From: Candidatus Saccharimonadota bacterium
GTDB taxonomy: Bacteria; Patescibacteriota; Saccharimonadia; UBA4664
NCBI GenBank assembly: GCA_019352195.1
Contig: JACAFG010000003.1
Location: 956 to 64,955 of the forward strand
Direction of reading: 5' to 3'
Length of the DNA: 64,000 bases
Of the stretch, positions 1,337-54,469 are shown in pieces; position 1 is the stretch's first letter; each line of letters begins with the position of its first letter. Under the pieces are notes generated by a model. That model was not told where the DNA came from, did not search any database, and worked only from the letters and a program-made list of their open reading frames with translations. Made by a program: the position numbers and the translations under genes.

Positions 1337-1396
1337 TCGGATATTGTACCTGTTTGGCTGACAATGAGCTAGTTTGGCCTCAACCCGAACGCGAAC

Positions 1397-2368
1397 TTAA
1401 GCGGTGGCCGCCCGCTTGGCGTGCCGCTCGGCATGCGCCAAATTATCGAGATAGGTTCGAATTTCAAGGGTCGCGCTCACACCTTCACCGACGGCCGAGG
1501 CAATTTGCCAGGTCGAACCGCTGCGCACATCTCCGGCCGCGTAGACGCCGGGGATGCTCGTAAGAAAATGGGCATCAGTCACAATGAAATCACGGTCATC
1601 CAGCGTGAGACTGTCTTTAAAGGCGCCGGTATTGGCCAGCAGCCCGATGAGCACAAAGATACCCGGCGCTTCGTAGGTGACGCCCTCGTTGTTCGTGGTG
1701 GCGCTGACGCCCGTTACTTTGTCATCCGAAACGTTAATTTTGTCGATGACGGTGTTATAGACAATGGTCAGGTTTTCGAGCAGGCTAACTTGCTCCCGCA
1801 AAATTGCACTGCCCTTTAGCTCTGGGCCACGCACGAGCATGGTGATATGGGAGGCAAACTTGGTTAAAAACATGATCTCTTGCATTGCGGAGTTGCCGCC
1901 GCCCACAACGATCAGGTCACGCCCGCGGTAAACTGGCCCATCACAGGTGGCGCAAAAATGCACTCCACGGCCAATCATCTCGGTTTCGCCGGGGACGCCA
2001 AGTTGACGGTAGGTAGAGCCGGTCGTAATGAGAACAGTTCTGGCCTGCAAGGGTGCTTTCTTAGTGGTGAGCTCGACAATATCACCAACACGCGCGATTT
2101 TTTGGACATCAATACCGGTTTTTACTTGCGCGCCAAAGCGTTTCGCCTGAGCGTAGAGCTTGTCGGACAGCTCGAGACCGCCAATACCGTTTTCAAACCC
2201 GGGGTAATTATCGATAACTTCGGTGAGGGCGGCCATGCCGCCGACCACGGCCTTTTCTACTACAAGGGTCGAGATGTCCTCCCGAGCTGAATAAATAGCT
2301 GCGGCCAGGCCAGCCGGCCCAGCGCCAATAATAACGAGATCATAGAGAGGTGGATCCGTTGGTTGCAT
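1397..2368 (-). CDS. trxB: thioredoxin-disulfide reductase
   Basis: 323 aa. Has the FAD GxGxxG motif (YDLVIIGAGPAGLAAA), the redox-active CATCDG, and a second NAD(P) GGGNSA motif. Confidence 0.9.
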   Translation of the reverse strand: MQPTDPPLYDLVIIGAGPAGLAAAIYSAREDISTLVVEKAVVGGMAALTEVIDNYPGFENGIGGLELSDKLYAQAKRFGAQVKTGIDVQKIARVGDIVELTTKKAPLQARTVLITTGSTYRQLGVPGETEMIGRGVHFCATCDGPVYRGRDLIVVGGGNSAMQEIMFLTKFASHITMLVRGPELKGSAILREQVSLLENLTIVYNTVIDKINVSDDKVTGVSATTNNEGVTYEAPGIFVLIGLLANTGAFKDSLTLDDRDFIVTDAHFLTSIPGVYAAGDVRSGSTWQIASAVGEGVSATLEIRTYLDNLAHAERHAKRAATA

Positions 2369-2446
2369 GTATATAGTGTACCCTTCTTGCCGGTATAACG
2401 CTAGCGCTTAGAGCGACTAAGCTCGGTCCCGGTCGCAACTAATCTT

Positions 2447-2474
2447 ATCAAAAACACGGCCCCGAAGGGCCGTG
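2447..2474 (-). terminator. rho-independent terminator downstream of the LCP gene (hairpin cacggccc-gaa-gggccgtg with U-run on the minus strand)
   Basis: Perfect 8-bp GC-rich stem at 2455-2474. It is preceded on the plus strand by caaaaa, which gives UUUUUG after the hairpin on the minus strand. Confidence 0.5.
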
Positions 2475-2612
2475 GGTGCAATGCGAGGGGTCTAGAGGTT
2501 TACGAGCACCTGCAAGTACCAAAAACGAACCTAAACTCCACTCACCATTGCTCTTTTGTTATATCACGAAGCTCAAGCGGGATACAAGTGCTTTTGCCAA
2601 AAATGGCAGCTT

Positions 2613-3965
2613 TTATTTAGCCACCGAGGTACTGGCTCCCAGGACCGAGTTCGATGAGCTAGCCTGGGCCTGCACCGCAGTCGTATACGGCGCGGGCAAA
2701 TTGGGTCCAGCTGAGTTAATGAAGGCCTGAGGAGTGAGCGACGCCGAATCAATGAGATGGTTCATATAGTAAATAGCCAGCTCACGGTACTTGGAGTCGC
2801 TACCGCCGCCCGCCGGCGTGGTACAGCTGCCAATCGTGCCGTACAGCGTAATGTAGGCACCAATACTTGAGGTGCTCGAACACAGGAAGCCATTTTCCGT
2901 GGACCAGTTACCTTTTTCGATGTCCGTATCTGGATTGAGCGTTTTAGCGATGGGTGCAAACGCTACCATTTCGTCGGTCGACATATTGGTATCAACGTTC
3001 TCGCCCAGAATAGTCAGGTAGTGTGAAATGTCGCCAATATTACCGACAATACCAAGCGACTTTACTTTGGTTAAGACGGCACTTAACACCAGCATTTGCC
3101 GTTTAGATCGCGCAAAATCGCTCCCCTCGCCATTGTCGAGGCTATGACGGCTGCGCGAATAGATGAGCGCGGTATCCCCGTTCATGTGCTGCACGCCGGC
3201 GACAAAGCTCGGTGCGGGACGGATATAACCTGAGTAATTCCAGGTGGGATACTCGTAGTCAGTAAAGCCGTCAGGAACATCAATATCAACGCCGCCCAAG
3301 GTGTTTACCAAATCAACTTCGCCCTGCATATTAAACTTCACCCAATAATCGATATTAATGCCATACTCTTTGGCTACTTGGCCCGCGACAAATAGGCTGG
3401 CATACTGGGGATCTTTTTTGTTGCGCATGTAGGCATAGGCGTAAACTTCGCCGAATTTGGCAGTTTCGTAGCCGTCATTTATTTGCAGGTCGCGGGGAAT
3501 GTTAATGGTGACGAGTTTTTTCTGCTGCCAGTAATATGACGCTAGCATAATTGAATCGGTGCGCATGCCGTCTTTTGTCATGCCATAAATAAGAAAATTA
3601 GTCTGCCCGTTCGTCTGGCCTTTAAGCGTGGTAGTCTCCCCTATCGATTTCTTAACGACACTGGCGGCAATATTAAGAGCGCTGAGTTTGGTATTTGGGG
3701 TGTGGGGCCTAAATACCATTGCCGCTAAAGCCGCTACCACCAAAATTGGCAACATCAATAGCCCAAACACCAGGCCGCGGTGCTTACTGGTAGAGCGTTG
3801 CCGAACCTGGCGCGAAGGCCCCGCGATGGGAGTCTCGGGCGCCACGGAAATAATTACGGGATTAGGGGTTAGGGTAGTTGGATTGGTTGCGGCAACGCTG
3901 CGGCGGCCCCGTACGGGGCCGTCCAGACGCTGCCTTCGCCGTCCATCACCATTCGGATCAAGCAT
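2613..3965 (-). CDS. LytR-CpsA-Psr (LCP) family cell-envelope attachment protein
   Basis: N-terminal Pro-rich region and one TM helix, then the LCP core (DSIMLASYYWQQKKLVTINIPRDL...GGVDIDVP). The track ORF extends to 4133 and overlaps the upstream J-domain gene by 122 nt. I place the start at the internal ATG (MLDPNGDG) near 3965. Confidence 0.7.
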   Translation of the reverse strand: MLDPNGDGRRRQRLDGPVRGRRSVAATNPTTLTPNPVIISVAPETPIAGPSRQVRQRSTSKHRGLVFGLLMLPILVVAALAAMVFRPHTPNTKLSALNIAASVVKKSIGETTTLKGQTNGQTNFLIYGMTKDGMRTDSIMLASYYWQQKKLVTINIPRDLQINDGYETAKFGEVYAYAYMRNKKDPQYASLFVAGQVAKEYGINIDYWVKFNMQGEVDLVNTLGGVDIDVPDGFTDYEYPTWNYSGYIRPAPSFVAGVQHMNGDTALIYSRSRHSLDNGEGSDFARSKRQMLVLSAVLTKVKSLGIVGNIGDISHYLTILGENVDTNMSTDEMVAFAPIAKTLNPDTDIEKGNWSTENGFLCSSTSSIGAYITLYGTIGSCTTPAGGGSDSKYRELAIYYMNHLIDSASLTPQAFINSAGPNLPAPYTTAVQAQASSSNSVLGASTSVAK

Positions 3966-4011
3966 AACTAGTATTTTAGCAGACAAAACCGAAGCCGTCG
4001 TGTGCAAACTA

Positions 4012-5001
4012 TTAGGGTGTAGGCTGGCTGGGTGAAGCGGCCTGACGCAGGGTGGCGTTATACGCGTCGTTAGCATCATTATATTGGCTTCGTAAGGCTT
4101 CGCAGCGCGCATTGGTGGCATTGTAGCTGGCAATTTGCTGCTGCTTTACCGGCACGAGCGAATCATATGCGTCGGTTTTTCCGCCCCATAAGTACGTATT
4201 CATGCGGGTTTCGGTGGCGCCAATGGCGGTATCGTTTTGATGCAAGGTTGCCTCACAACTATAGTACTGTGCACTCAGGGCGGCCATTTGGGCAGAATCC
4301 TTGGCGCTGGCAGCCGATAGCGAGGCATTGGCGAGCGGTGTCGGACTGGTTGGATTTGCATTCAGAGAGGACGCGGGCAGAGTTGCGAGACGCAACATGA
4401 CAATAAGCCCTACGATCGCCGTTCCCATGATCACCCCGCGCCACGCAAATGGTGAGACTATACCGTGGTAAAGGTCGTCAAACTGCTGGGGACTAAGCTG
4501 ACGTCGGGCAAGTTGCTGCGGATTATAGAAGTAATGAATTCCGCGAACGATACTAAACAAGCCGTAGCCAATGGCGGCCCAAAACAACAAGTAGACCGAG
4601 TTGTTGGTGTGGCTTAAGTAGCCGATTGAGACAAAAAAACCGCCAAAAACGAACCAGGCGAGGCCGATGATGATATCTTTGTGAGCCTCAGCGCGGGCCG
4701 CATCTTCAACCTGTACGCGCGCCACGGCTCGCGCAGCCCAACTGTCATCGCCAGATGCCACCGGCCGCTTGGGTGCCGTATGAGATTGGATGCGTGAGCG
4801 GTTTTGTTCGTCGTAGCGGGAGCGCTTTTCGCTCCGGCCCAACACCTGATAGGCCTCGTTCAGCCGTTGCATTGCCCGCTCACTGCCGCCGTGATCTGGA
4901 TGATATAGCTTGGATAATTCGATATACTGACGCTTAATTTGCGCCGCGGAAGCGCTGGGAGTAAGTCCAAACGTTTTGTAGTAGCCAAGATTATCAGTCA
5001 C
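4012..5001 (-). CDS. J-domain (DnaJ-like) membrane protein
   Basis: N-terminal J domain with HPD motif (YYKTFGLTPSASAAQIKRQYIELSKLYHPDHGG). Followed by about 3 TM helices and a Ser/Ala/Asn-rich extracytoplasmic tail. Confidence 0.7.
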   Translation of the reverse strand: MTDNLGYYKTFGLTPSASAAQIKRQYIELSKLYHPDHGGSERAMQRLNEAYQVLGRSEKRSRYDEQNRSRIQSHTAPKRPVASGDDSWAARAVARVQVEDAARAEAHKDIIIGLAWFVFGGFFVSIGYLSHTNNSVYLLFWAAIGYGLFSIVRGIHYFYNPQQLARRQLSPQQFDDLYHGIVSPFAWRGVIMGTAIVGLIVMLRLATLPASSLNANPTSPTPLANASLSAASAKDSAQMAALSAQYYSCEATLHQNDTAIGATETRMNTYLWGGKTDAYDSLVPVKQQQIASYNATNARCEALRSQYNDANDAYNATLRQAASPSQPTP

Positions 5002-5096
5002 GCTAACGCCACAGGAAATTAGTTTTCTCGTGACATATTAGTACGCTGTTTTGGCACTTTTTGCAAGGTCTTAGATCGGTCACGCTACCGAGTGCG

Positions 5097-6410
5097 TTAG
5101 GCCGCTGGCGCCGGCTGGGGTGCCGGACTCAGGCGAATTGTTACGACATAGGCGATGACCACCGCCACAATCACCAGCGGCATCACATCGAGACCATCTG
5201 ATGACAAGAGCAACGTGGCGAGCAATATAGAGACCAAGGGAAACTTCAGCATAGAAACGGTCATTGCCCCCATGCCAATGGCAATGGCCGGCACTAACGA
5301 TAGGCCTGGCAAGTGAGACATGGCAATTCCCAAGGCGGCTCCAATAAACATAGCCGGAAAAGTTGGACCACCGCGGAAGCTCGAGAGCGAAATACCGTAA
5401 GACAGACCCTTCAAAACTATGAGCAGAACGAGCGTCCAAACCGGAAACGAGCTTGCATTAACAATGAGCGGTCCAAGTGACGATTCACCGGAATACAGGA
5501 CGTTGGTGGAGCTGTCACCGGTCGTGATACTGTAGCCAATGGCAAGTAAGGCCACTATCACACCGGCCATTACCGCTCCGCCGACGCCGAAACGCGAGGC
5601 GTAAGGCTTAACTCGAAAGCCAAGCCAGCGGATGGCCCGTATCACCAGCGGCGCAACTAAGCCCACTACGATTGCCCAACCGAATTCGGTAATCGTGGGT
5701 GCGCCGATATGAGGCAAATTAGGGATGGCGAGTGATAAGGTCCCGAGTCCGGTGAGCGATCCGAGGCCCAGAAAGATAAGGTAGCCGATACCAGCCGACA
5801 GTAAACCAGGAATTAAGACCATTTCCATGGTGGCACCACCCAGACCAGCAGCTTCCATCATAAGAAAGGCTCCCAGTAATGGCGAACCCAATAAGGCGGA
5901 GATGGCGGCAAAGCTACCGGACGCCGCGATCATAGCGCCGGCCTGATTTGGCAGATCTTTTTTGGCTTGCTTAACCGCCCAGTAGGCCAAGCCGCCGCCG
6001 ATTGCAATCAGCGGCCCTTCGGGACCAACTACCGCGCCGAGGCCGATGCTCGCAAGACTGGCGATAGCAATACCGGGGAGATTAGCCGGGATCGGTAAGC
6101 CGCCCGCTTTAAAGCCTTCGATTGGCATTTCGCCACCTTTGCCGGGCAGGTACTTGATAACAAGGCCGACAATGAGACCCGCCAATGTTAGTGGAATGAG
6201 CGGCCACCAGGTAGCGGCAGTGTGAGAGCTAATGTGGGCAGGAACGTCAGTAAAGAGCCACGTCTGCAGTTGGCCGGTCAGTGCCAAAAAGAAAAACGCC
6301 ACGACTGAGACAGGAATTCCAATAAGGGCCGCAATAACGAGTAACTGAATATAGGCCTTACTTCTCATAGGGGCGTAGGGATCGGGAGAAACGGCCGGCG
6401 TTGTACTCAT
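5097..6410 (-). CDS. ClC-family chloride channel / H+-Cl- antiporter (short form, no CBS domains)
   Basis: 437 aa polytopic membrane protein with ClC selectivity-filter-like motifs (GPEGPLIAIGGG, GGPTFPAMFIG). Confidence 0.65.
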   Translation of the reverse strand: MSTTPAVSPDPYAPMRSKAYIQLLVIAALIGIPVSVVAFFFLALTGQLQTWLFTDVPAHISSHTAATWWPLIPLTLAGLIVGLVIKYLPGKGGEMPIEGFKAGGLPIPANLPGIAIASLASIGLGAVVGPEGPLIAIGGGLAYWAVKQAKKDLPNQAGAMIAASGSFAAISALLGSPLLGAFLMMEAAGLGGATMEMVLIPGLLSAGIGYLIFLGLGSLTGLGTLSLAIPNLPHIGAPTITEFGWAIVVGLVAPLVIRAIRWLGFRVKPYASRFGVGGAVMAGVIVALLAIGYSITTGDSSTNVLYSGESSLGPLIVNASSFPVWTLVLLIVLKGLSYGISLSSFRGGPTFPAMFIGAALGIAMSHLPGLSLVPAIAIGMGAMTVSMLKFPLVSILLATLLLSSDGLDVMPLVIVAVVIAYVVTIRLSPAPQPAPAA

Positions 6411-6492
6411 GGCATCCTTTCGGTGAACTAAACTAATTTTGCTTGGGCTACAGCACCGCTAAATCTTGTTCTCATTGTGGCATTTAATGGCT

Positions 6493-6939
6493 CTAGCTGG
6501 CAATCTTGGCAGTTACGTCTGGATCTCGTGCTTTGGCGGCAAGCAGTTTACGCGTAAGCTTATACTGAATTTTTGTGATCCAAATAAATCCGGCGTCCAA
6601 AATTATGAGAGCCACGAGCCAGGACGATGGCTCAACGAACATACGGTAGATTTGATAGACCATAAACACTACCAAAAAGCCGATCATGAGGGGGAAGGCC
6701 CAAGTCTTTTTACGGTACAAAGCTACTACGAGTACGAGTTTAAACGATCCATGCAGTATGAAGTAGACTATCAATACCTCGAGTGAAGCATTGGTATCGG
6801 GAATAAAATTGGATATTGGCGATGGTGACTGGAGCAGTAAGACGCCAGCGACAATTTCAAACACTGCGTCGAGAGCTTTCATTACGAGAGACGCTCCAAA
6901 AGCTTGATTGAGGGTTTTTTCGCTGTTTGAGAGAGCCAT
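6493..6939 (-). CDS. small 4-TM membrane protein (DUF2127-like)
   Basis: 148 aa with four hydrophobic helices. The domain assignment is from memory of the family and is uncertain. Confidence 0.45.
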   Translation of the reverse strand: MALSNSEKTLNQAFGASLVMKALDAVFEIVAGVLLLQSPSPISNFIPDTNASLEVLIVYFILHGSFKLVLVVALYRKKTWAFPLMIGFLVVFMVYQIYRMFVEPSSWLVALIILDAGFIWITKIQYKLTRKLLAAKARDPDVTAKIAS

Positions 6940-7056
6940 GGGATTATATTACTCGTGCTCCGCACTTATGTCGCTTAAGGCCCGAATATAAGTCGCGTCG
7001 TATTCATGCAAAACCGGCACCTCGCTTTGAGATGCCGGTTTTGACAGGTTTTGATC

Positions 7057-7335
7057 CTACAGTCCGAGAATTTGACGCTTTTTAGCCTGAAATTCGTCTT
7101 CGGTAAGATAGCCCTGATCTTTCAGACTGCCGAGCTTCTCAATTTCAGCGTAGGGATCGGCTGCTACCGGAGCCGCGGCAGGTTGTTCCTGGGGTGCTGG
7201 CGCTGGAGCAGCTTGAGGCTGCGATTGCTGCTGGCGACTAGCCACATTTCCCGCTACGGCCGTAGCAGTACCAGCAACCACGGCTGTCCGCGCCATTGTT
7301 CCAACTAGACCTACTCCACGTCGTCGCATTAACAT
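7057..7335 (-). CDS. SHOCT-domain protein
   Basis: C-terminal DPYAEIEKLGSLKDQGYLTEDEFQAKKRQILGL is the short C-terminal (SHOCT) motif. It is preceded by a Gln/Ala/Pro-rich linker. Confidence 0.6.
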   Translation of the reverse strand: MLMRRRGVGLVGTMARTAVVAGTATAVAGNVASRQQQSQPQAAPAPAPQEQPAAAPVAADPYAEIEKLGSLKDQGYLTEDEFQAKKRQILGL

Positions 7336-7336
7336 A

Positions 7337-7775
7337 TTATTTATCTCCTTCGGCTGGCGCTGCGGCCAACTCGCTTAATACTCGCTCAACATTTTCGGGA
7401 CGAATGCGCCCGTCGGCCACGAGCACTCCGCCAGCGCCGATCACGGCCTGTTTGAGGTCTTTGGCCCACACGTGTTCAAACAATAACAATCCAGCTGAAC
7501 TTCCGGGTTCGAGCAAAGCACCGGCTTCGGCAACGTCCTCATCAGACAGTAAGCCAGTGAAGTCTTTCATGAATGGCTTGAACGCCTCAGTAATTTCAGC
7601 GGGCATGTTTTCGATCTCAACGGCCGCCACCACGTCATCCTCACCACGGGTGATAAAAAGCAAATCGATGATCCGAATAGTGCCAGTCTCAACTAAGTGA
7701 CTGAGCTCGGGCAAAATTTCGCCCTTAAACTGGCTTCCTGGGAAAGCAATTACGACGTAATCTATGGGACCTAGC
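7337..7775 (-). CDS. hypothetical soluble protein, co-transcribed with the SHOCT gene
   Basis: ORF 7337..7810. The probable start is the internal ATG (MLGPIDYVVIAFPG). It abuts the SHOCT gene with a 1-nt gap. Family not recognised with confidence. Confidence 0.4.
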
Positions 7776-8043
7776 ATATGATCTCCTGTCCTACTATTTA
7801 CGAGTACCAAGCAATATTGGCAAGCTATACGGATACTCTTCTATTTAATACCGCTGGCGACTAAGCTGGCCAGGCGCAAGTGCCTAAAAATAGACTCTTG
7901 AAATCCATAATTATTGTGACAATGCACAAACATCCATGATAGTGCCTCGACGGTAATGATCGTAACATAAATTGCACAATTACTGCTGTGAGGAGCGCTA
8001 TAATACTACTAGTGTTTAGCCACTCTTAGCGAAAAGGTAGATT

Positions 8044-8418
8044 ATGAACCGTCTTAAAATCGCTCAGAACACCCCTGTAGCAATCCTCGCTACCGAAGCC
8101 GTCGCAGTGGTAGTGTTTGCGCTGAACTGGGGTGCCCACGGGGCTGCAGTGGCTTCTATGAGCGCGGCGGTATCTAACACCATTGTTGCGCTTATCATGG
8201 GCGTCGTCGTGGTTCGTGCCCAGCCGCCTATTGGTATCGGTCGCGCAATGCTTTATGGTTTGGGCCTTTGGCTCGCGTCGACAAGTATCTTCATCGGCAT
8301 ATTTATGTCTATTCAAAGCCATAATAAAGTCATCGGCCTACTTATTGGACTCATCATGCTAGCAGCAGGTGTCGGGTGCCTGGCAGCATTCCCTGTGCCG
8401 TCTACAGCTAAGTCTTAG
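8044..8418 (+). CDS. hypothetical 4-TM membrane protein
   Basis: 124 aa and very hydrophobic, with RBS aaaggtag before the ATG. The overlapping minus-strand ORF is Arg/His-rich and looks spurious. Confidence 0.45.
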   Translation: MNRLKIAQNTPVAILATEAVAVVVFALNWGAHGAAVASMSAAVSNTIVALIMGVVVVRAQPPIGIGRAMLYGLGLWLASTSIFIGIFMSIQSHNKVIGLLIGLIMLAAGVGCLAAFPVPSTAKS

Positions 8419-8568
8419 TTCGTTACCTTTGGAAAAAGGTAGCAGCCGCGTCAAACGCTGATTCAGGGAAGTTTGCGCGATCGCCAGAGTTACTCGTTCG
8501 TCCAATAACTTCACCAAGGCCTCTCGGTTACGAGTAAAAATTACGGTCTTAAACGCAATCCTATAGGA

Positions 8569-9291
8569 TTATTTTTGAAGTATATATTTGCGCGAGTGCA
8601 CGGCCATCGCCACAAAACTCACGTTTTCACCGTTTGGTAGTGCAATCGTCACTTCGGTAATCATGCCGTTTGGCAGTCGCTGACTCATCGAGCAGGCCGC
8701 TCCGCCTAGGCTGACGTTAAGTAACTTGCCTATTACGTCGGGGTGGCTCGCGAAACGAAACGAACCCGGGGCCTGAAGTTCTATGCTGGTTGTTCGGCGT
8801 CGATTGGCGCCGGGTGAGGTCTTAGAAGTATGCATGTCATCTTGAGTCGTGCAGCTATATAAGAGGGCGATACGCTTAGTAGCCTGAATACTGGTGGCAA
8901 ATGACGCCACGCTCATGAATGGAGTTATGCCAATTCTTCCAGCGAGAAGCACTACGTCCGTGTACCGAGCGATGTCAAGCACGAAGCACCCGAACGGGCC
9001 ACGGACATCAACTACGTCACCTATCTGGGCCGCTGACAAGCCGCGGGTAAAAGGGCCGCGTGTGCGCATACTAAATTGGAGGATCTCCTGCTCGGTTGGC
9101 GAGCTCACTATGGAAAAACAGCGAGCTGGAGTAGGCCTTCCCCCCTTAAAGAAACTAATTGCAGCATATTGCCCTGGTTGAAAGGCAATTAACTGATTTG
9201 CATCTCTTGAACGGAGTGTTACAAGCAAAGTAGAAGCATTTATTTGCTCCGATGCTTCCACAACATACTTATACATGCTCTGTAAGGCCAC
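8569..9291 (-). CDS. FAD/NAD(P)-binding oxidoreductase of the ferredoxin-NADP reductase (FNR) superfamily
   Basis: RCFSIVSSP (RxYS FAD-binding motif) and LLAGRIGITPFMS (NAD-binding GxGxxP). Has an 80-aa C-terminal extension of unknown function. Confidence 0.6.
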   Translation of the reverse strand: MALQSMYKYVVEASEQINASTLLVTLRSRDANQLIAFQPGQYAAISFFKGGRPTPARCFSIVSSPTEQEILQFSMRTRGPFTRGLSAAQIGDVVDVRGPFGCFVLDIARYTDVVLLAGRIGITPFMSVASFATSIQATKRIALLYSCTTQDDMHTSKTSPGANRRRTTSIELQAPGSFRFASHPDVIGKLLNVSLGGAACSMSQRLPNGMITEVTIALPNGENVSFVAMAVHSRKYILQK

Positions 9292-9440
9292 GGATACACT
9301 GCCTTAAATATTCAATTTTGATTATTCCACTAAGAGGCTCACTGAAGCCTCAATTTAAGGATAAGCCCTTTGTCTCCGGGTCGTGGGTGACGTTTGAACC
9401 ATTTTGAGCGAGGAAGCTATGGGCCAGTTAGGTATTTACC

Positions 9441-10026
9441 CTAGAATATGCCACCTGAAGGTTCAAGCTTGAGCTTGAACGCTCGGGTGGTACCCCTTCT
9501 GGCACCATGCATCCTTGTGGGGATGGCCCGCCGACCCATACCTGTCCTGTGCGGCAGGCGCTCGGCCGCCTCGCAGGTGATGCCTCGGATGACTCTGTGG
9601 TGGGGACGCGGGGCCTTATTGAGCCGGCCGGTCACTACAGCGAACCCGATTTTGACCCCATCTTCATAGATGCGATCGAGGTAAATCCCTTGTTTCGTGA
9701 GGATGGTGCGGCCGTTGCAGGCCGCGACCAACTCCGAATCGGTGCCCATCGGCATCGATATGCTGCCGGATTTGGCCAGTTTTAGGACTTCCCTAGCGAG
9801 GTCGAGAAGCCCGAGGTCGTCGACCTCGTCGCGCTCCGCTTGGGCGAGCGCCTGGGCGAGCAGTTCGGCCGGCGCGGTTTTTTTTGCATTGCTCGCAGTA
9901 GTACCCGGACTCGCCGAGCAACGTTACTATCGTGTGGCCGCACGCCATCGACGTGACGGTAGGGACGGTGAACTGTGCAGCCATGGTAGGCTCCATTTCT
10001 GGGTCGAGTGATGCGAGACTATTCAA
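9441..10026 (-). pseudogene. frameshifted gene (zinc-ribbon N-terminus, then a domain of unknown function); the frameshift lies in a T8/A8 homopolymer
   Basis: ORFs 9793..10026 and 9441..9755 join into one roughly 190-aa reading frame if one A is removed from the A8 run (plus-strand T8 at 9888-9895). The result is ...YYCEQCKK|TAPAELLAQALAQAERDEVDDLG...GIYLDRIYEDGVKIGFAVVTGR... Confidence 0.5.
9470..9496. repeat. palindrome-containing repeat (ttcaagcttgagcttgaa-cgctcgggtgg); a near-copy lies at 12307-12333
   Basis: An 18-nt core cttgaGcgctcgggtKgg is shared with 12316-12333 (2 mismatches). Both copies sit next to short perfect palindromes. Confidence 0.45.
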
Positions 10027-10858
10027 GGTACGGGTGCTCCGGGCTCAAAACGCCTCAGCGTGACAGTTGCCCGTTTACGGGAGAGTGTTTTGATTGGGGG
10101 TTGAATTCAGGTTCATGGAACGCATACTATTGTACCTCTAATGCTTATGCTTGTCAATAGTAGCGTGCATGGCGGAGCAAGTCTCGAACTATTTTCACTC
10201 AAGACATGAAGAAGCCACCGGCGGGGCTCCTTCACTCGCTTGAAGCGAAGGGCCCGCGCGATGGCGGTTGAGTGGCTAGCGCGGATTTCTGGATCATGAC
10301 ATGCGGTGCCTTTCCGCGTGCCTCTTGGCGGCGGTGATGAGCGAATCAAGCGCTGCCTCCAGGAGCATCCCGAACTCATAGGACCGGCCGGGAATGAGCG
10401 GTGCCTTGGCGGTCACCCTTCTTTTTCCAAGCGAGATGTCCATGACGATCTGGTCGCTAAGATCGAGACCCCGCCACCACTGTTATGCCTGGTGATGGTT
10501 AGCTCGAATGAACCGCTCCTGGCGTGCAGGCGACCCTTGGCTGACAGAGAAATGTCCTTCGGCCAGGGGTACAGAAGCACCTCGTCGATGGTCAGTGCTA
10601 CCATGCTCGTAGCAAGTGGATAACCATTCAAATCAATTACTGCCTTGTTTCTCAGCAAGCGCAGTTTTTCGCCGGCCGACCTGGGCAATCGGAAGTCTCC
10701 GCTGGCTAGCTGCTACCATGCGTGAGCAACACCAGGCGGCCAGAGAGAGCCGCGAGAAAGAAGTAACGTTCATTCAGGCACAAATTGCTTGGTTGTCTCG
10801 CATGGAGGAGGGAATATAGGACGATAAGCTGGCCGAAGAAATAACCAAGGAGAAATAC

Positions 10859-10978
10859 ATGGAAAAGCATAAACAACTCAAGACTCAGCGAGCTGAGTCG
10901 GATGATAAATTGATAAAGGTTCAGAAGTCGTTTGGAGTGCAGTTAGAAGAGCGCTTGGCAATCATAGAGCTGCCCTAA
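10859..10978 (+). CDS. small ORF (39 aa, MEKHKQLKTQRAESDDKLIKVQKSFGVQLEERLAIIELP) with a strong RBS
   Basis: AAGGAG lies 7 nt upstream of the ATG. The region is AT-rich. Too short for the ORF track. Confidence 0.3.
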   Translation: MEKHKQLKTQRAESDDKLIKVQKSFGVQLEERLAIIELP

Positions 10979-11154
10979 AAGGCCGCCAACCTTGATACAA
11001 AAAAAAGACACCGGAGCAAAAACGGGTAACAATAACCAAACTTTTCAGTTCTATGACTGCAAATAACGGTTCTGTATCTGTTACGTACACCAACTTTGCT
11101 CGGGCAATTGCAGAAAAAGTTCGAGAAACACGTAATCTAATGGAGGTATAGAAA

Positions 11155-11289
11155 ATGAATAACCAAACCATCAAAAATGACCCCGCTGACAGATCAGACG
11201 AGGCCAAAATTGAGCTTGAAAAGCAGTTAATTGCTATATGGCAGCCCCTAGTTGACGTACTTCGAACTATTAGCTCGGTGGCGATTTAA
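11155..11289 (+). CDS. small ORF (44 aa, MNNQTIKNDPADRSDEAKIELEKQLIAIWQPLVDVLRTISSVAI) with a strong RBS
   Basis: GGAGGT lies 7 nt upstream of the ATG. A 32-aa ORF (11053-11151) sits immediately upstream. Confidence 0.3.
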   Translation: MNNQTIKNDPADRSDEAKIELEKQLIAIWQPLVDVLRTISSVAI

Positions 11290-11490
11290 TGCGGCGGGAA
11301 CTACGAACCCATACGATACAGTGGCTTTTCGTAATGAGGACTTAAATTTGCTGAGCATTTGTCGGGACGTTAGAACTGCAATTAACCAAGCTAACTCAGC
11401 TATTAGTTTTCCTGTTCTCAGTAAGAACCTCTGCTGGTCTGGTATTTTGTAATTCCAGTAGTCTGATTATTCTACAAGATATGTATTCGA

Positions 11491-12111
11491 CTATTTCTTC
11501 TTCTGAACTATCGAAAACAACACAGTGGTCGATAATACATCTTCATTAGACTGCTCCATCGTACCCATTTCGATGATATCGAAGCCCCCATCTACTAAAA
11601 ATTTTTTAAACCTATCTTCACTAAAAAAATTCACAAAAATTTTCTCTCCTTCTGCAAGAGGCTCATCTAAAATCTGATCGGCATCTCCTTTTTGCACGAT
11701 GAATAGCGCAATTCCACCAACTTTCATTACACGAATGATTTCGCGTAATGTAGTAAGTAATTCAGAGCTCGGGATATGTATTAAAGAATATGCAACTAAG
11801 CACGCATCAAAGGTTTCGTCGGGATATACAAGTTTACGCATATCCATTTTTGTAAATGTACCCGTCGGCACTTTATCTCGTGCTATAGCTAACATTTCAT
11901 CCGATGTATCAATCCCAGTGACTTTATGCCCGTGCCCCATGAGATACTGTGAAAATTGCCCAGGTCCGCACCCAATATCGAGTACAGTTGATTTGATTGC
12001 AAGTCGTTCAAGCAAGTTGTCTATCATAGGCGTATCCGATACATCATCAAAAAACTCGCGGGTATACGCGTTAGCAATTTTACGGTATGTTTCTTCAACG
12101 AATTTCGTCAT
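11491..12111 (-). CDS. class I SAM-dependent methyltransferase
   Basis: SAM-binding motif I VLDIGCGPGQFSQYL. 206 aa. AT-rich (about 40% GC) inside a GC-rich neighbourhood. Confidence 0.75.
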   Translation of the reverse strand: MTKFVEETYRKIANAYTREFFDDVSDTPMIDNLLERLAIKSTVLDIGCGPGQFSQYLMGHGHKVTGIDTSDEMLAIARDKVPTGTFTKMDMRKLVYPDETFDACLVAYSLIHIPSSELLTTLREIIRVMKVGGIALFIVQKGDADQILDEPLAEGEKIFVNFFSEDRFKKFLVDGGFDIIEMGTMEQSNEDVLSTTVLFSIVQKKK

Positions 12112-12167
12112 GTTTTTATCATATCAAAAACAATACCATTGCTGATTTTATTTTAAGCATAAGTTCT

Positions 12168-12200
12168 TTGGCAGGGGTGGCAGGGCGGGAATAGAACGGA
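12168..12200. repeat. degenerate copy of the tRNA-Trp 3' end (candidate att-site remnant)
   Basis: tggcaggggt(ggcagggc)gggaatagaacgg compared with the tRNA 3' end tggcaggggtacgtggaatcgaaccacgg at 13154-13182. The first 10 of 10 nt and 9 of 10 in the T-arm segment are identical. Confidence 0.5.
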
Positions 12201-12306
12201 TGATGACATCGAGGATCATATTTAAGCGATTCGTCAGTTACTGACGGAGCAGTACGTCCCAGTTAGAAGTACTGACTTATCGAACTTTTTCGATGATACT
12301 CAGCCT

Positions 12307-12333
12307 GAAAGCTCAAGTGATGCTTGAGCGCTC
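12307..12333. repeat. near-copy of the 9470-9496 repeat, flanked by palindromes (gctcaagtgatgcttgagc; gattcaacctttgaaggttgaatc)
   Basis: Read directly from the sequence. Confidence 0.45.
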
Positions 12334-12408
12334 GGGTTGGGCCTCTGATTCAACCTTTGAAGGTTGAATCAGAGGTGTCGCCACTGCGACCGTGGCGAAG
12401 TTGGTCAT

Positions 12409-12861
12409 TCAGACCAGGTTGGGTGCTTCAACCCGCAGGTAGGCGTACCCTGCATCGGTTCGGGTGAACCGGTGGGTTGTCCCGTTGCAGGAGACGCGAT
12501 GGATCACGGCTCCCACGGTAAGGGCGTCGACGTTGATGAGCATGTACTCATCATTGTCGGATGCTCCTCCCAGCTCGCCACGAATGACGAGTGCATAGCC
12601 GTTGGAACGGGCCGACCAGTCCAAGTGAACGCTGTCGGGCACCTCGTTAGGGTCATCGATTGCGGGGAACGATTCCTCGCCGTCGATGGTGGTGATCATG
12701 CCGGTTTCCTTGGCGAACGACGCCGTGACGCAGATGGGCGCCAGCTGAGCCGCCGCCAGTGCGTCGGTGGTGGAGTGAAACAGTCCCCCGGCGCGGTGGC
12801 CGAAGAAGCTGGCCACATCGGCCGCGGTGAGGGTCTCGCCGGTGGTGTGGTTCCAGGTCAT
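12409..12861 (-). CDS. hypothetical protein (150 aa), high-GC island cargo
   Basis: About 65% GC, and the amino-acid composition looks protein-like. The overlapping plus-strand ORF (12364..12963) is Gly/Arg/Val-rich and looks spurious. Confidence 0.4.
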   Translation of the reverse strand: MTWNHTTGETLTAADVASFFGHRAGGLFHSTTDALAAAQLAPICVTASFAKETGMITTIDGEESFPAIDDPNEVPDSVHLDWSARSNGYALVIRGELGGASDNDEYMLINVDALTVGAVIHRVSCNGTTHRFTRTDAGYAYLRVEAPNLV

Positions 12862-13153
12862 GGCAGGCTCCTAGGGCCTCGGGTCCGCGACGGTTCGCGG
12901 GATTGGTTCCTCGTGCGGCCGCAGCGAGGTACGAACGAAATCAAGTTTCTGGATCAGTTTTGATGCTATTTCACTGAACGCTAACTATAGTAGCATAAGC
13001 ATAAACTAATGTCAAGTTCCGAATACCAAACGCTCATGTAGGGAAACGGGGCTCGAACTTAAATAATAGCTTTGCGAAGGAGTAATTATGATACGGGAAA
13101 ATTGATCGAATCTCTAGCTGGTGTTTTGTGACTCTATGGAGCTGAATAAATCC

Positions 13154-13228
13154 TGGCAGGGGTACGTGGAATCGAACCACGGTCCTAGGTTTTGGAGACC
13201 CATGTACTAACCGCTGTACTATACCCCT
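13154..13228 (-). tRNA. tRNA-Trp (anticodon CCA)
   Basis: Minus-strand read: AGGGGTA-TA-GTACAGCGGTTAGTAC-A-TGGGTCTCCAAAACCTA-GGACC-GTGGTTCGATTCCAC-TACCCCT-G-CCA. It folds as a cloverleaf with anticodon loop CUCCAAA. Confidence 0.85.
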
Positions 13229-13297
13229 AAATATGTTTTGAACCTGCTTATTGTACGTAAATTCACCTCAGCCGTCGAGGGTTTGCGCGAGGTTACC

Positions 13298-13930
13298 CTA
13301 GGCCGGTGGTAGCTCGGTGAGTATGTGGCGCTCAGTCCGGCCCGTAAGTTTACCGCTGTCATCAAAGTCATAAAACAGACAGGTGCCAAAAATCATTTCA
13401 ACGTCGGCAATCTTGTCGTCGGGAATTTGCTCAATGAGTTTGACGAGGGAGCGAATAGAGTTGCCGTGGGCAGCCAAAATGATGGTTTTACCGGTCGCTA
13501 AAGCAGGCGCAATTACCTCTTTGAAATACGGCGTGGTCCGAGCAAATACATCCTTAAGCGTTTCCCCGTTAGGCATTGGGTAGTCCCAGGAGCGGCGCAA
13601 CGCCTCGAATGCAGCCTCGCCAATTTGATCGCGCACCTGCCACTTGTTTAGTCCCGTATAATCACCGTAATCACGCTCATCGAGCGCATGGCTGTATGAG
13701 CGAGGTACATCGGACTGTGCGGCGGTCTTTAGTAGCTCGTCGAGGGTTTCGTGCGTACGGACCTGCTCTGAGGCAAACGCGTGATCAAACCTGACATCGC
13801 CTAATAACTCCCCCATTTTGGCGGCATCGGCCCGGCCTTTGGCGGTAAGATGGACGTCGGTCGTGCCGGTCCAAACGCCGCGGGCGTTCCACTCGGATTC
13901 ACCGTGTCGAACAATAACTAATTTACCCAT
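13298..13930 (-). CDS. gpmA: 2,3-bisphosphoglycerate-dependent phosphoglycerate mutase
   Basis: N-terminal RHGESEWN catalytic His motif of the histidine phosphatase family. 210 aa. Confidence 0.8.
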   Translation of the reverse strand: MGKLVIVRHGESEWNARGVWTGTTDVHLTAKGRADAAKMGELLGDVRFDHAFASEQVRTHETLDELLKTAAQSDVPRSYSHALDERDYGDYTGLNKWQVRDQIGEAAFEALRRSWDYPMPNGETLKDVFARTTPYFKEVIAPALATGKTIILAAHGNSIRSLVKLIEQIPDDKIADVEMIFGTCLFYDFDDSGKLTGRTERHILTELPPA

Positions 13931-14915
13931 GGTGAGCCTCCGAGGTAGAGGTGCTAATAAAGTCGCGAATGTTGTGTGCGGTCATGGCGGCAATGCGCTG
14001 ACGGGCCTCAATGGTGTTATAGGCGTTGTGATTGGTCATGAGCACGCCAGGCAGCCGCTCGAGAACACTAATGCGCAACGCCTCGCGTGAATGATGCTGA
14101 CGTACGGCACTCAGTTCCTCGGCCAGACTTGCAAGACGTTCATCTTCGACGACATCAAGAGCAGCGCCGGCAAGGTGCCCGTTTTGGAGCGCTTCGATTA
14201 ACGCATCAGTATGGATAATCTCGCCGCGAGCGGAGTTAACAATGATGGCAGTGGGCTTCATCAGTGAAAACGCGTGTTGATTGATGAGATGACGTGTTTC
14301 CGGAGTGGCCGGGACATGGAGCGAAATAACGTCCGAGGTAGCTAGCACTTCATCGAGGCTCGCGTAGCTAAAACCGATTTCCGCCGCGAGATTATGATTG
14401 GGATAGGGGTCGTACCCGATTACGTTCATGCCAAAGCCGCGGCCAATTCGGGCCGTGTTGAGGCCAATGCGGCCCGTACCGATGATGCCCAAAGTACGAC
14501 CGAATAATTCGATGCCCGTGAGGTCGTCATGAGAAGCATCGCCGCCGATCATGAGCGCCTGAGCGCCAGCAATTTTGCGGCCGAGGGCCAGCAGTAAGGC
14601 GAAGCTGTATTCGGCGACCGTGTGCTCGCCGTACGTGGCTACCGAAGCAATTTTAACGCCATGAGCAGCGGCATAGGCAGTGTCGATGTGGTCGGTACCA
14701 GTTGAGCGCGTAGCAATGAGCTTAAGCTCCGGCATGGCTGCCATGACTTCGGCGGTAACCTTACTCGATACAAAGACGCAGATTATAGCGGCATCGCTGT
14801 GAACGTTGGCGGCCGATAAGGGGGCCTCAATAAAAATCGGCTCGAGGCCGGTAAGGGCAATCTTTAACTCCGCCTGGTCGGCTGGGGTCGCTTCGTAGCA
14901 ATAAAGGTTTGTCAT
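13923..14915 (-). CDS. D-isomer-specific 2-hydroxyacid dehydrogenase (LdhA/SerA-like), NAD-binding
   Basis: Rossmann motif GIIGTGRIGLNTARIGRGFGMNVIGYDPY. 330 aa. Confidence 0.75.
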   Translation of the reverse strand: MTNLYCYEATPADQAELKIALTGLEPIFIEAPLSAANVHSDAAIICVFVSSKVTAEVMAAMPELKLIATRSTGTDHIDTAYAAAHGVKIASVATYGEHTVAEYSFALLLALGRKIAGAQALMIGGDASHDDLTGIELFGRTLGIIGTGRIGLNTARIGRGFGMNVIGYDPYPNHNLAAEIGFSYASLDEVLATSDVISLHVPATPETRHLINQHAFSLMKPTAIIVNSARGEIIHTDALIEALQNGHLAGAALDVVEDERLASLAEELSAVRQHHSREALRISVLERLPGVLMTNHNAYNTIEARQRIAAMTAHNIRDFISTSTSEAHHG

Positions 14916-15059
14916 AGCTCCATTATGACATGAAACAGCGCTTTAATGGCTGCTTTGCGTTTCCTTAAGCCGGTTCAAATATGAGTGGACTTCGCTAGGC
15001 GGTAAACCAGACTGTCATCACAAAGAGCCCGGCGCAGAAGCGCAGGCTAAATGTTGGTG

Positions 15060-15221
15060 CTACTTGCTCTCTTTGTGAGTGAGAACTTTTTGCTCGTGCT
15101 TGCAGTACTTTTCAAGTTCAAGGCGATCGGTTGTATTCTTGGGGTTCTTGTTAGTGGTGTAGTTGCGATTGTGGCAGCTGGTGCACTCGAGAGCGACAAA
15201 AGGTCGGTTACGCTTGGGCAT
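15060..15221 (-). CDS. rpmG: 50S ribosomal protein L33
   Basis: My own translation gives [53 protein letters not shown] (53 aa). This is below the ORF-track length cutoff. TAG stop. Confidence 0.85.
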
Positions 15222-15230
15222 GGGAATCTC

Positions 15231-15416
15231 CTAATTCTTGGGGGTGATGGCGGCGGCGATTAAGTATGTGATGAGACCTGGGAAAATACCGGTCATAATG
15301 GTCACAACCACCACGATGAGGCGGACAATGGTAACGTCGACTTCTACATAGTTGGCGATGCCAGCGCAGAGTCCAAGCCACTTTTTGTTCGTTTCATCGA
15401 GAGTGAGACGTTTCAT
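15231..15416 (-). CDS. PspC-domain membrane protein (61 aa)
   Basis: MKRLTLDETNKKWLGLCAGIANYVEVDVTIVRLIVVVVTIMTGIFPGLITYLIAAAI matches the PspC N-terminal domain pattern. Only 9 nt separate its stop from the rpmG start. The longer track ORF (to 15551) reads through the tRNA. Confidence 0.6.
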   Translation of the reverse strand: MKRLTLDETNKKWLGLCAGIANYVEVDVTIVRLIVVVVTIMTGIFPGLITYLIAAAITPKN

Positions 15417-15454
15417 ACCATTATCCTTTGAGTTTGAATGTGAAATTATTCTAA

Positions 15455-15529
<75 letters not shown>

Positions 15530-17850: not shown

Positions 17851-17882
17851 AAAAAGAAAATGCCCCGTTTAACCTACGGGGC
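17851..17882 (-). terminator. rho-independent terminator (hairpin ccccgt-ttaacct-acgggg with U-run on the minus strand)
   Basis: The minus strand reads ggccagccccguagguuaaacggggcauuuucuuuuucu. Confidence 0.5.
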
Positions 17883-17930
17883 TGGCCATTAGAATCATGA
17901 CCTTAGGACTGCTTTCGCAGCGGGCGAACA

Positions 17931-18125
17931 TCAGCTGCGAGGCGCGGTCGTAGAGCTGGCGAGACGCAGCACGTACTCCGCGCGCGAGAGAGGCTCGTCC
18001 CAGCTCTTGGAGCCGGGGTAGCCCTCCACGCCGGAGCGCCAGCCGTCGGGATCGACGACGACCCGTTTGAATTCGGGAGCCCATTCGTCGGCCATGCGTA
18101 GTTCGGGAGTGCCGGTCGTGTCCAT
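17931..18125 (-). CDS. small hypothetical protein (about 64 aa, MDTTGTPELRMADEWAPEFKRVVVDPDGWRSG...), high-GC
   Basis: An island of about 65% GC with three overlapping minus-strand ORFs. Only this frame looks protein-like and is followed by the terminator. Weak call. Confidence 0.25.
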   Translation of the reverse strand: MDTTGTPELRMADEWAPEFKRVVVDPDGWRSGVEGYPGSKSWDEPLSRAEYVLRLASSTTAPRS

Positions 18126-18263
18126 GACAATGTTCCGTTCATTCCGCAGTGATGCTCTGAGGGTACAAAGCAATATATATTATGGCACAATATGTTAATA
18201 GTGTCATCATTCATAAAGCAAAGTAAAAAAGAGCCGGGCCTGGCTCTTTAAACATAAGTGCAA

Positions 18264-18349
18264 TGGTGCCGGGTGAGAGATTTGAACTCCCGAAGACTAA
18301 TGTCAGCTGATTTACAGTCAGCCCTCGTTGGCCACTTGAGTAACCCGGC
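18264..18349 (-). tRNA. tRNA-Tyr (anticodon GTA), long variable arm
   Basis: Minus-strand read: GCCGGGT-TA-CTCAAGTGGCCAACGAG-G-GCTGACTGTAAATCAGC-TGACATTAGTCTTC-GGGAGTTCAAATCTCTC-ACCCGGC-A-CCA. Confidence 0.85.
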
Positions 18350-54268: not shown

Positions 54269-54469
54269 ATCGCTACCCGGCGGAACCACCTTGTAAGAGG
54301 CTGGTTCCGCCGGGGATTTTGTCTTTTAGCATAAGTTCTAAAAAACTATTGACTCTAGACCTCGAAAGTTGTATTTTTTGATAGGTTTATACGCCTGAAG
54401 TTTGATGGCGGAACCACGCAGTACCTGCTGAGGCAATCCTTTGCAGACGTCCTAGAATAAGGACTGTAC

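Follow-up and report, generated by a model that had tools for sequence, protein, structure and literature searches.

The islet at positions 9300-13153 of the window (by which we mean the whole 64,000-nt stretch of contig JACAFG010000003.1 analyzed here, from a Saccharibacteria metagenome-assembled genome) lies against the 3' end of a tRNA-Trp gene and was probably built by repeated site-specific insertion at that end, followed by decay. A first-pass annotation of the DNA had proposed a decayed integrative element or an integration hotspot at this place, and that core reading holds; in place of the single element it pictured, however, at least four modules are stacked in the islet, and every one of them is closed by a boundary site of its own. 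The evidence comprises repeats, homology across loci, occupied and unoccupied tRNA-Trp sites, a cassette found in three tRNA contexts and foreign base composition. The islet is largely decayed, with a frameshift, in-frame stops and what is probably a truncated recombinase.

We infer that the following gene is the anchor of the array, on the attB side.

13154-13228, minus strand: tRNA-Trp with anticodon CCA and an encoded CCA end (ARAGORN; Rfam tRNA, 65.2 bits).

The islet starts at 13153, the base directly after the encoded CCA, and the 3' side of the gene is 13153 and below. The gene is 90% identical over 81 nt to the tRNA-Trp of L107, L109 and L112, three of the relative loci cited here by L numbers. 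Because the contig of a second assembler is identical over 13 kb spanning the whole islet (an independent Logan contig from run SRR11551193, matching window 2409-15484 with the T8 run and all junctions included), the window sequence is treated as real, with the proviso that both assemblies may rest on the same reads. The window also lies within contig JABBYD010000024.1 of assembly GCA_017884045.1, annotated as a Candidatus Saccharibacteria bacterium. A DNA similarity search of 9300-13153 against phage and plasmid collections returned no match, and an Rfam scan of the window yielded four tRNAs only, without picking up the tRNA fragment at 12169-12199 that closes the first module.

That module, C1, lies nearest the tRNA and is probably the youngest. 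Its features are as follows.

12169-13153, minus strand: module C1, a 985-bp insert adjoining the tRNA; it begins directly behind CCA and runs through the duplicated ACCCCTGCCA.
12169-12199, minus strand: partial tRNA-Trp 3' end, T-loop-like GTTCTATTCC ... CCCTGCCACCCCTGCCA, the distal att remnant of C1.
12409-12861, minus strand: gene for a 150-aa protein, the cargo of C1 (63% GC; GC at third codon positions [GC3], 0.79).
12987-13015, minus strand: putative promoter-like site of C1, TTGACA, 17 nt, TACTAT, with TG ahead of the second hexamer (consensus scan, 10/12).
12342-12375, no strand assigned: perfect inverted repeat with 16-bp arms, 100% complementary, lying shortly past the end of the 150-aa gene.

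The 10-nt direct repeat ACCCCTGCCA stands at 13163-13154 and again at 12178-12169, and TGGCAGGGGT at 12169-12178 equals the exact last 10 nt of the window tRNA-Trp (10/10). The 985 bp between the tRNA and the copy behave as an insert with the 10-nt direct repeat at its ends. The first-pass annotation had described a degenerate tRNA-Trp copy at 12168-12200 as an att remnant. When aligned to the window's own tRNA, this copy does not stand out from chance, with 47% of shuffles reaching its score (8% for the 3' 30 nt in direct orientation). Window 12151-12185, however, agrees with L106 at 33/35 bases (E=3e-8) over the 3' end of its tRNA-Trp and the trailer, the trailer being a motif that directly follows certain tRNA genes. 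The copy at 12169-12199 is therefore a genuine partial tRNA-Trp; it stems from a tRNA-Trp variant other than the window's present one, which accounts for the weak similarity within the window.

The relatives bear this out. A metagenome collection was scanned for CCCCTGCCA followed by the trailer core. In L106, L107, L109 and L112 the site is unoccupied, with tRNA-Trp joined straight to AAGTACTTATG..., the trailer that in the window lies 985 bp away, starting at 12168. In L111 and L113 it is occupied: one or two genes are inserted behind tRNA-Trp, and another CCCCTGCCA with its trailer closes the insert, an arrangement shared with the window. L107 shows four more junctions inside 2 kb. The L106 backbone follows the same order as the window (TrkA, pseudouridine synthase, DNA polymerase III delta', TPR protein, tRNA-Thr/Thr/Tyr, PspC, tRNA-Trp). 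Because relatives show both unoccupied and occupied sites with the duplicated CCCCTGCCA and trailer, the reading of 12168-12200 as an att-type remnant is supported. The first-pass annotation had expected secE-nusG behind the tRNA, and the relatives do not back this: L107 has its array and other genes there, L111 and L113 have cassettes, and L106 ends too soon to tell. An L11 signature was found nowhere in the 64-kb window. When synteny was followed through a neighboring phosphatase gene among species-representative genomes, the closest relatives, Saccharibacteria bins, were only 50-57% identical in amino acids and the gene was not beside tRNA-Trp there.

Several further tRNA-associated arrangements were seen in other loci. 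An 88-aa GIY-YIG nuclease gene (L113 4716-4982 in locus coordinates, minus strand; Pfam E=7.5e-18) directly follows tRNA-Trp inside the first junction-bounded unit of that locus. In L101 (2808-9470; JGI 3300053147), tRNA-Phe is followed by five minihelix-like T-arm repeats CCCTGTTATTTCAGTTCGAGTCTGGTAGGGC, each placed between a terminator-like hairpin and the next gene, which is a different flavor of tRNA-derived repeat array. L005 (11128-11553; Saccharibacteria bin CAZVTA010000003.1) has a 5'-half copy of tRNA-Arg 174 nt upstream and a 3'-end copy 169 nt downstream, and these copies look like further scars of tRNA-targeted insertion in the phylum.

The cargo of C1 belongs to a sparse family: a search of 1.84 billion representatives gave just five homologs, all small, and neither Pfam nor PHROG matched the protein. 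The open reading frame (ORF) is 61-66% GC in every homolog locus versus 40-58% in the flanks, and a constant GC-rich ORF in differing flanks fits a gene that keeps moving. AlphaFold2 modeled the protein with a pLDDT of 83.7 and a pTM of 0.81; Foldseek of this model against PDB and BFVD gave no significant match, and the predicted fold may be undescribed. A similar TTGACA...TGCTATAAT stands upstream of the homologous gene in L086. The inverted repeat at 12342-12375 has a DNA fold of -16.3 kcal/mol (z -8.5), and a T-run follows it on neither strand.

Directly beyond the tRNA copy lies module C2, whose boundaries and cargo can be followed in other arrays.

11349-12168, minus strand: module C2, a methyltransferase cassette of 38% GC, made up of trailer, gene and boundary site.
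12150-12168, minus strand: tRNA trailer AAGAACTTATGCTTAAAAT, the left edge of C2 and the top window match of the trailer hidden Markov model (HMM), E=3.8e-5.
11491-12111, minus strand: class I S-adenosylmethionine (SAM)-dependent methyltransferase, the cargo of C2 (Methyltransf_25, E=2e-22; Methyltransf_11, E=1e-21).
11349-11389, minus strand: site CAGTTCTAACGTCCCGACAAATGCTCAGCA at the 3' boundary of C2, a worn version of the one that closes every L091 cassette.

The trailer HMM was trained solely on trailers from other loci. The upstream boundary of C2 reads ...CCCCTGCCA joined to AAGAACTTATGCTTAAAAT at 12178-12150, and the trailer motif of 12150-12168 directly follows tRNA-Trp in L106 and L107, tRNA-Gln in L091, tRNA-Lys in L092 and tRNA-Tyr in the window; it is found after some tRNA genes only, not all. 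At the opposite edge, a boundary-site HMM made from L091 and L092 sites only had its best match in the 64 kb at 11356-11384 (E=0.013), and the 3' boundary of C2 matched L091 2631-2676 by blastn (E=1.4e-4). Both Pfam matches of the methyltransferase exceed the curated cut-offs and denote a Rossmann-type SAM-binding domain, as in a generic class I enzyme. The protein is 83% identical (81% at the nucleotide level) to that of L091, a 3.9-kb metagenome contig of 40% GC, and nucleotide similarity to L091 extends past both ends of the ORF, at 77% over 834 nt from window 12175 to 11347. Within the non-coding flanks of the cassette, the boundary motifs are the best-conserved blocks. The L092 array holds a further copy (65% amino-acid identity). 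The methyltransferase thus stands behind tRNA-Trp in the window, tRNA-Gln in L091 and tRNA-Lys in L092, three different tRNA genes in organisms whose GC content is 40-53%.

Both of these arrays consist of small units separated by repeated sites. Behind tRNA-Gln, L091 carries four units of one gene each, encoding a deaminase, the methyltransferase and two membrane proteins, and every unit is bounded by a repeat of about 50 nt, GCAGTTCTAACATCCCTACAGATGGCCAGCCA followed by AAGAACTTATGCTTAAAT, the right half of which is the tRNA-Gln trailer. In L092 (array at 1263-14400; JGI 3300037076, Ga0395910_000272), ten copies of ...CAGTTGCAATAGCnAGCACGATGGCCCTCCA come after tRNA-Lys within 13 kb, the last 12 nt of the site being the tRNA-Lys acceptor end, and one or few unrelated genes lie between sites (NUDIX, HD, GNAT, YcaO, methyltransferases, ABC transporter). 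The L092 site is about 45 nt long, with an 11-nt core GATGGCCCTCC that is exact in six copies and 1-2 bases off in the other four; its right arms fall into two classes of five copies each, either the tRNA trailer or an AT-rich TTAT-type arm. No recombinase gene was found in the 20 kb around the L092 array. Boundary sites thus number ten in L092 and four each in L091 and L107, and as single strands such sites do not fold (DNA z 0.0 and +0.9). The left half of the site (CAGTTCTAAC / CAGTTGCAAT ... GATGGCC) is common to the tRNA-Lys and tRNA-Gln arrays and to a cassette at the window's tRNA-Tyr, and it is not a copy of the local tRNA there.

The tRNA-Tyr cassette is a second cassette locus, at 17875-18263 (minus strand) beside tRNA-Tyr 18264-18349: the trailer TTGCACTTATGTTTAAA and a terminator-like hairpin come first, then a GC-rich 64-aa ORF at 17931-18125 (phrog_11725, E=1e-6), then a boundary-type site GCAGTCCTAAGGTCATGATTCTAATGGCCAGCC unlike the tRNA-Tyr end. 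An orphan trailer-like site, AGAACTTATGCTAAAAG at 54323-54339 (minus strand; trailer HMM E=0.035), is followed by a long GC-rich hairpin; the nearby sequence holds no tRNA gene, and the motif may be left over from another such site. As to the trailer itself, a promoter was considered and dropped, the spacing to any -35-like hexamer being wrong, and six single matches of the motif in viral contigs, all away from tRNAs, are consistent with chance.

Outward of C2, the islet probably contains the remains of a recombinase, although the first-pass annotation had stated that no integrase remains.

10631-11148, plus strand: pseudogene that probably preserves the C-terminal portion of a large serine recombinase; TAG interrupts the frame at 10817-10819, and the frame shifts close to an A8 run around position 11000.
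11155-11289, plus strand: 44-aa ORF with GGAGG upstream, taken from the ORF list and called in the NCBI annotation; no PHROG match.

A tblastn search with a 187-aa ORF of L113 gave two high-scoring segment pairs in two frames, 10631-11005 and 10996-11148 (E=2.4e-21). One pseudogene accounts for the ORF at 10616-10819 and for two tiny ORFs, 10859-10978 and 11053-11151; three tiny ORFs had been noted before and are present, but these two are not separate genes. The L113 ORF matches positions 422-559 of phrog_95 'integrase' (E=2.6e-5), a profile that phiC31 integrase matches at 4.5e-65. The L113 ORF also contains LYDDKLAGEI, probably a motif of the kind found in the coiled-coil of large serine recombinases. 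The window fragment itself matched phrog_5389 only (E=0.009). In both the window and L113, the fragment lies just past a junction and points toward the tRNA. Resolvase and Recombinase matches were absent from the upstream frames, and the fragment has no zinc ribbon, leaving only about 170 C-terminal residues; the absence of the N-terminal domains fits truncation, and the sequence can only be called a fragment. A six-frame Pfam and PHROG scan of 9300-11500 found no integrase domain and only a weak transposase-type match inside the recombinase fragment, and no full-length relatives of the fragment were found in phages, plasmids or viral contigs with either a protein or an alignment query.

The outermost part of the islet is GC-rich and shares a hairpin repeat with C1.

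10113-10688, minus strand: two in-frame ORFs (10113-10379 and 10413-10688) split by TGA, with a weak coding signal (GC3 0.62 and 0.53).
10129-10157, minus strand: putative promoter-like site TTGACA, 17 nt, TACAAT, ahead of the frameshifted gene (consensus scan, 11/12).
9441-10026, minus strand: GC-rich gene broken by a frameshift at T8 (9877-9884), the cargo of what is presumably the oldest GC-rich module.
9451-9490, no strand assigned: hairpin repeat copy A (DNA fold z -3.8), pairing with 12304-12337.
12304-12340, no strand assigned: hairpin repeat copy B, aligning to 9454-9488 (blastn-short E=2e-4).
9352-9410, minus strand: probable outermost boundary, a worn T-loop-like site GGTTCAAACGTCACCCACGACCCGGAGACA followed by trailer AAGGGCTTATCCTTAAATT, the fourth-best trailer-HMM match (E=1.5).

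The repeat pair 9454-9488 / 12304-12337 scores 39, against 25.8 +/- 2.4 with a maximum of 33 in 60 shuffles, and the hairpin repeat is absent elsewhere in the 64 kb. One stem pair changes from T-A to C-G between the copies, a compensating change. Both copies lie downstream of a GC-rich minus-strand gene, 44-105 nt before the module's tRNA-like site, and weak collinear matches link C1 and the outer GC-rich module (a start context GGAGCCTnCCATG and a short motif CTAACTGG), none being significant alone; the start context GGAGCCTACCATG of the frameshifted gene is closely like that of the 150-aa gene. In our reading, two related GC-rich modules each hold one copy as a homologous portion of their 3' side, and the copies are not the ends of a single 2.8-kb element. 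The repeat pair reported at first pass is significant, but it does not bracket the inner 2.8 kb as had been supposed. Neither the 180-aa protein rebuilt from the frameshifted gene nor the TGA-split ORFs had a homolog, and the latter had no family match in any frame. The outer boundary at 9352-9410 resembles the C2 boundary site by eye, and a hairpin at 9334-9351 follows it.

Two other readings of the hairpin pair were rejected. Against attC sites of an integron, GTTGGGC sits outside the stem of copy B and is missing from copy A, and the genes are on the wrong strand; as an IS200/IS605-type or hairpin-ended transposon, the pair lacks a TnpA (Y1 HUH) or TnpB match in six frames of 9300-11500, and the other genes are the methyltransferase and the tRNA copy.

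Base composition also shifts along the islet. GC is about 0.61 at 9450-10050, 0.36-0.43 at 10800-12150 and up to 0.67 at 12600-12900, swings that had been described from the start over these 3.8 kb. In 1-kb profiles, the AT-rich block at 10.7-12.0 kb is the sole tetranucleotide outlier, at z 4.4-4.9, the window maximum. Against a GC3 baseline of 0.589 +/- 0.06 (39 long ORFs of the window), the 150-aa gene (0.79), the frameshifted gene (0.72-0.73) and the methyltransferase (0.36, or 3.9 standard deviations below the window mean) are outliers, and GC3 restores the foreign-composition argument for the GC-rich genes. The compositional mosaic claimed at first pass is thus borne out by k-mers in the AT-rich block, and in the GC-rich blocks by GC3 only. 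Most gene-level claims of that annotation stand as well: T8 lies between the two minus-strand frames of the frameshifted gene, with coding-type GC3 on both sides (0.72-0.73 versus 0.49 at second codon positions in the respective frames); the split ORFs are in the same frame with TGA between them; the AT-rich block does encode a SAM methyltransferase; and the GC-rich gene at 12409-12861 is the 150-aa ORF.

Two genes outside the islet are also unusual. A calcineurin-like phosphoesterase gene at 42540-43307 (plus strand; Metallophos, E=1.8e-6) has a GC3 of 0.785, about 3.3 standard deviations above the window mean, and is a further foreign-gene candidate. The gene flanking the islet starts at 9291, beyond the outer boundary; this 240-aa ORF (8569-9291, minus strand) combines a weak FAD_binding_6 match (E=3e-8) with a sub-threshold PilZ match (E=2.5e-4), an odd pairing that may reflect a degraded or fused gene.

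A model of serial insertion would join these observations as follows. Each incoming module would carry a site that mimics a tRNA gene end and consists of a T-loop-like segment, the acceptor strand on the 3' side and CCA. Recombination between this site and the genuine tRNA end, with the crossover presumably inside ACCCCTGCCA, would leave the tRNA intact and place the module's own arm next to it, while the tRNA-like copy would end up at the far end of the module, joined to the former tRNA-following sequence. Each new insertion would push older modules outward. Counted from the tRNA, the order would be C1 (13153-12169, the 150-aa gene), C2 (12168-11349, the methyltransferase cassette, from a low-GC relative), the recombinase-tail fragment (11348-10616), the GC-rich broken genes (10615-9411) and the worn boundary plus trailer (9410-9352), with the nearest module arriving last. 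These steps would be catalyzed by a serine recombinase of the remnant's kind or by one provided in trans. Excision of C1 would leave the T-arm joined straight to the trailer, TTCGATTCCACGTACCCCTGCCA next to AAGAACTTATGC, and a circular C1 would carry the junction …GCCCTGCCACCCCTGCCA next to GGATTTATTCAGC.

Several observations weigh against this account. Large serine recombinases normally leave only a 2-bp overlap; a repeat of 10-17 nt points more to a tyrosine than to a serine enzyme, whereas the sole remnant looks serine-type. The assignment of that remnant goes back to one PHROG profile (E=2.6e-5) in a coiled-coil-rich region; Pfam, NCBIfam and PDB gave the fragment no support, and hhalign against phiC31 integrase was negative. 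No intact recombinase was found in the islet, nor in the 64-kb window by motif scan. At the outer end, the boundary at 9410-9352 is statistically weak (E=1.5), and no boundary was found near 10616, between the recombinase fragment and the GC-rich part. The GC-rich blocks have tetranucleotide z near 0 and a GC within the window's own upper range, which weakens the mosaic argument there. Finally, the relatives with unoccupied sites are distant (37-41% GC versus 53%), and none is a strict comparison of the same locus, empty.

It is also possible, though we think it unlikely, that the sites are maintained instead of being scars, and that the islet belongs to an integron-like cassette system anchored at tRNA genes, which Saccharibacteria and other, related bacteria with small genomes may have, with single-gene, promoter-bearing cassettes that have no integrase of their own. 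A recombinase encoded elsewhere would then capture, shuffle and exchange cassettes between tRNA genes and organisms through a site of about 45 nt of the form CAGTTCTAAC...GATGGCC..CCA, with capture at the CCA end of tRNAs followed by (A/T)AGnACTTATGYTTAAA; the tRNA end would play the role of attI, and the window would hold two arrays, the islet as a worn example and the tRNA-Tyr cassette. The ten L092 sites, with their conserved 11-nt core, unrelated genes in between and no recombinase within 20 kb, speak for such a system, as do the left half shared by arrays at different tRNAs without copying the local one, the methyltransferase cassette in three arrays and the preferential conservation of boundary motifs in the cassette flanks. 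Yet the searches turned up no integrase dedicated to such a system (the window, L091 and L092 all lack a tyrosine-recombinase motif), the sites, unlike attC, do not fold as single strands (z near 0), and the divergent, decaying sites of the window fit scars better; few loci sharing one cassette family are, moreover, a thin basis for a general system.

Homologous recombination after DNA uptake, with the trailer, terminator and tRNA-like blocks serving as short anchors and no site-specific enzyme involved, we regard as improbable. Saccharibacteria are naturally transformable, no intact recombinase lies nearby, and conserved blocks of 20-45 nt flank every unit, all of which would suit such exchange; it sits badly, however, with insert boundaries placed exactly at the tRNA CCA with the acceptor end duplicated, with a trailer that follows some tRNA genes only, and with a recombinase remnant at the same position in two arrays. 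An assembly chimera of misjoined reads, or a set of coincidental repeats, is very improbable: the source is a metagenome-assembled genome and the tRNA copy falls within chance against the window's own tRNA, but the contig of the second assembler is identical across the islet, the same architecture and homologous junctions recur in unrelated samples, and the hairpin pair beats all 60 shuffles. Serial insertion at the tRNA-Trp end followed by decay remains the reading we prefer.

Under that reading, the islet is a tRNA-gene island of a well-described sort in an unusual host. We file it with known tRNA islands because islands holding stacked elements, partial tRNAs and broken integrases have been well documented, Prochlorococcus being one example. 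In the tycheposon islands of that organism, elements insert at tRNA 3' ends and lie between a full and a partial tRNA, with later arrivals displacing earlier ones; these islands contain fragmented integrases and scattered partial tRNAs, use tyrosine or large serine recombinases, and occur in a small, streamlined host genome (bioRxiv 10.1101/2020.12.28.424599). The islet shares with them the insertion at a tRNA 3' end, the stacked modules, the partial tRNA and what is probably a broken recombinase. It differs in that its modules are of 0.8-1 kb with a single gene, C1 and C2 having neither a recombinase nor a replication gene, whereas every tycheposon has a recombinase of its own and, as a rule, a replication module; in that a conserved, non-tRNA left half of the sites and a conserved trailer recur across arrays at different tRNAs; in the density of the L092 array; and in its host, a Saccharibacteria (Patescibacteria) epibiont.

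Compared with large serine recombinases such as phiC31 Int, the L113 relative of the pseudogene aligns to the C-terminal region of phrog_95, whereas the fragment lacks the zinc ribbon as well as both the recombinase and the catalytic resolvase domain. The arrays resemble Xer-exploiting elements (IMEX) and the pdif modules of Acinetobacter plasmids in being integrase-less modules with short conserved sites and an enzyme encoded elsewhere, but they lack a dif-like palindromic core and their left arm is the tRNA acceptor end. The trailer TTATGCTTAAA may loosely resemble the XerD arm TTATGTTAAAT of Escherichia coli dif; the two are shifted by one base, AT-rich sequence could produce such a likeness by chance, and a dif-like Xer site was set aside on account of this loose fit.

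As in integrons, dense and mostly co-oriented single-gene cassettes are each closed by a repeated site, with no recombinase inside the cassettes and with the same cassette in different arrays. Unlike integrons, there is no IntI-type gene beside the array, and no Pfam or PHROG match to one in the islet; the sites are not hairpins and, on reading the sequence, show no paired R''/R' (RYYYAAC / GTTRRRY) boxes; the cassettes carry promoter-like sites; and the anchor is the end of a tRNA gene. Because these integron tests fail (no IntI, no attC hairpins), an integron-like system, if real, would be an analogue and not a member.

Saccharibacteria have tiny genomes and live attached to other bacteria. 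We know of few mobile elements described for them, and in the literature searched there was no description of such arrays in this phylum. The locus and its relatives show a concrete route of single-gene gain and loss, through short modules inserted at the ends of certain tRNA genes. Should the sites be no more than scars, this is an ordinary tRNA island in an unusual host; if they work with an enzyme encoded elsewhere, their short, defined sequences could offer an entry point for genetic tools in these bacteria, which are difficult to manipulate, and the arrays would form a gene-capture platform comparable to the integron, anchored on tRNA genes.

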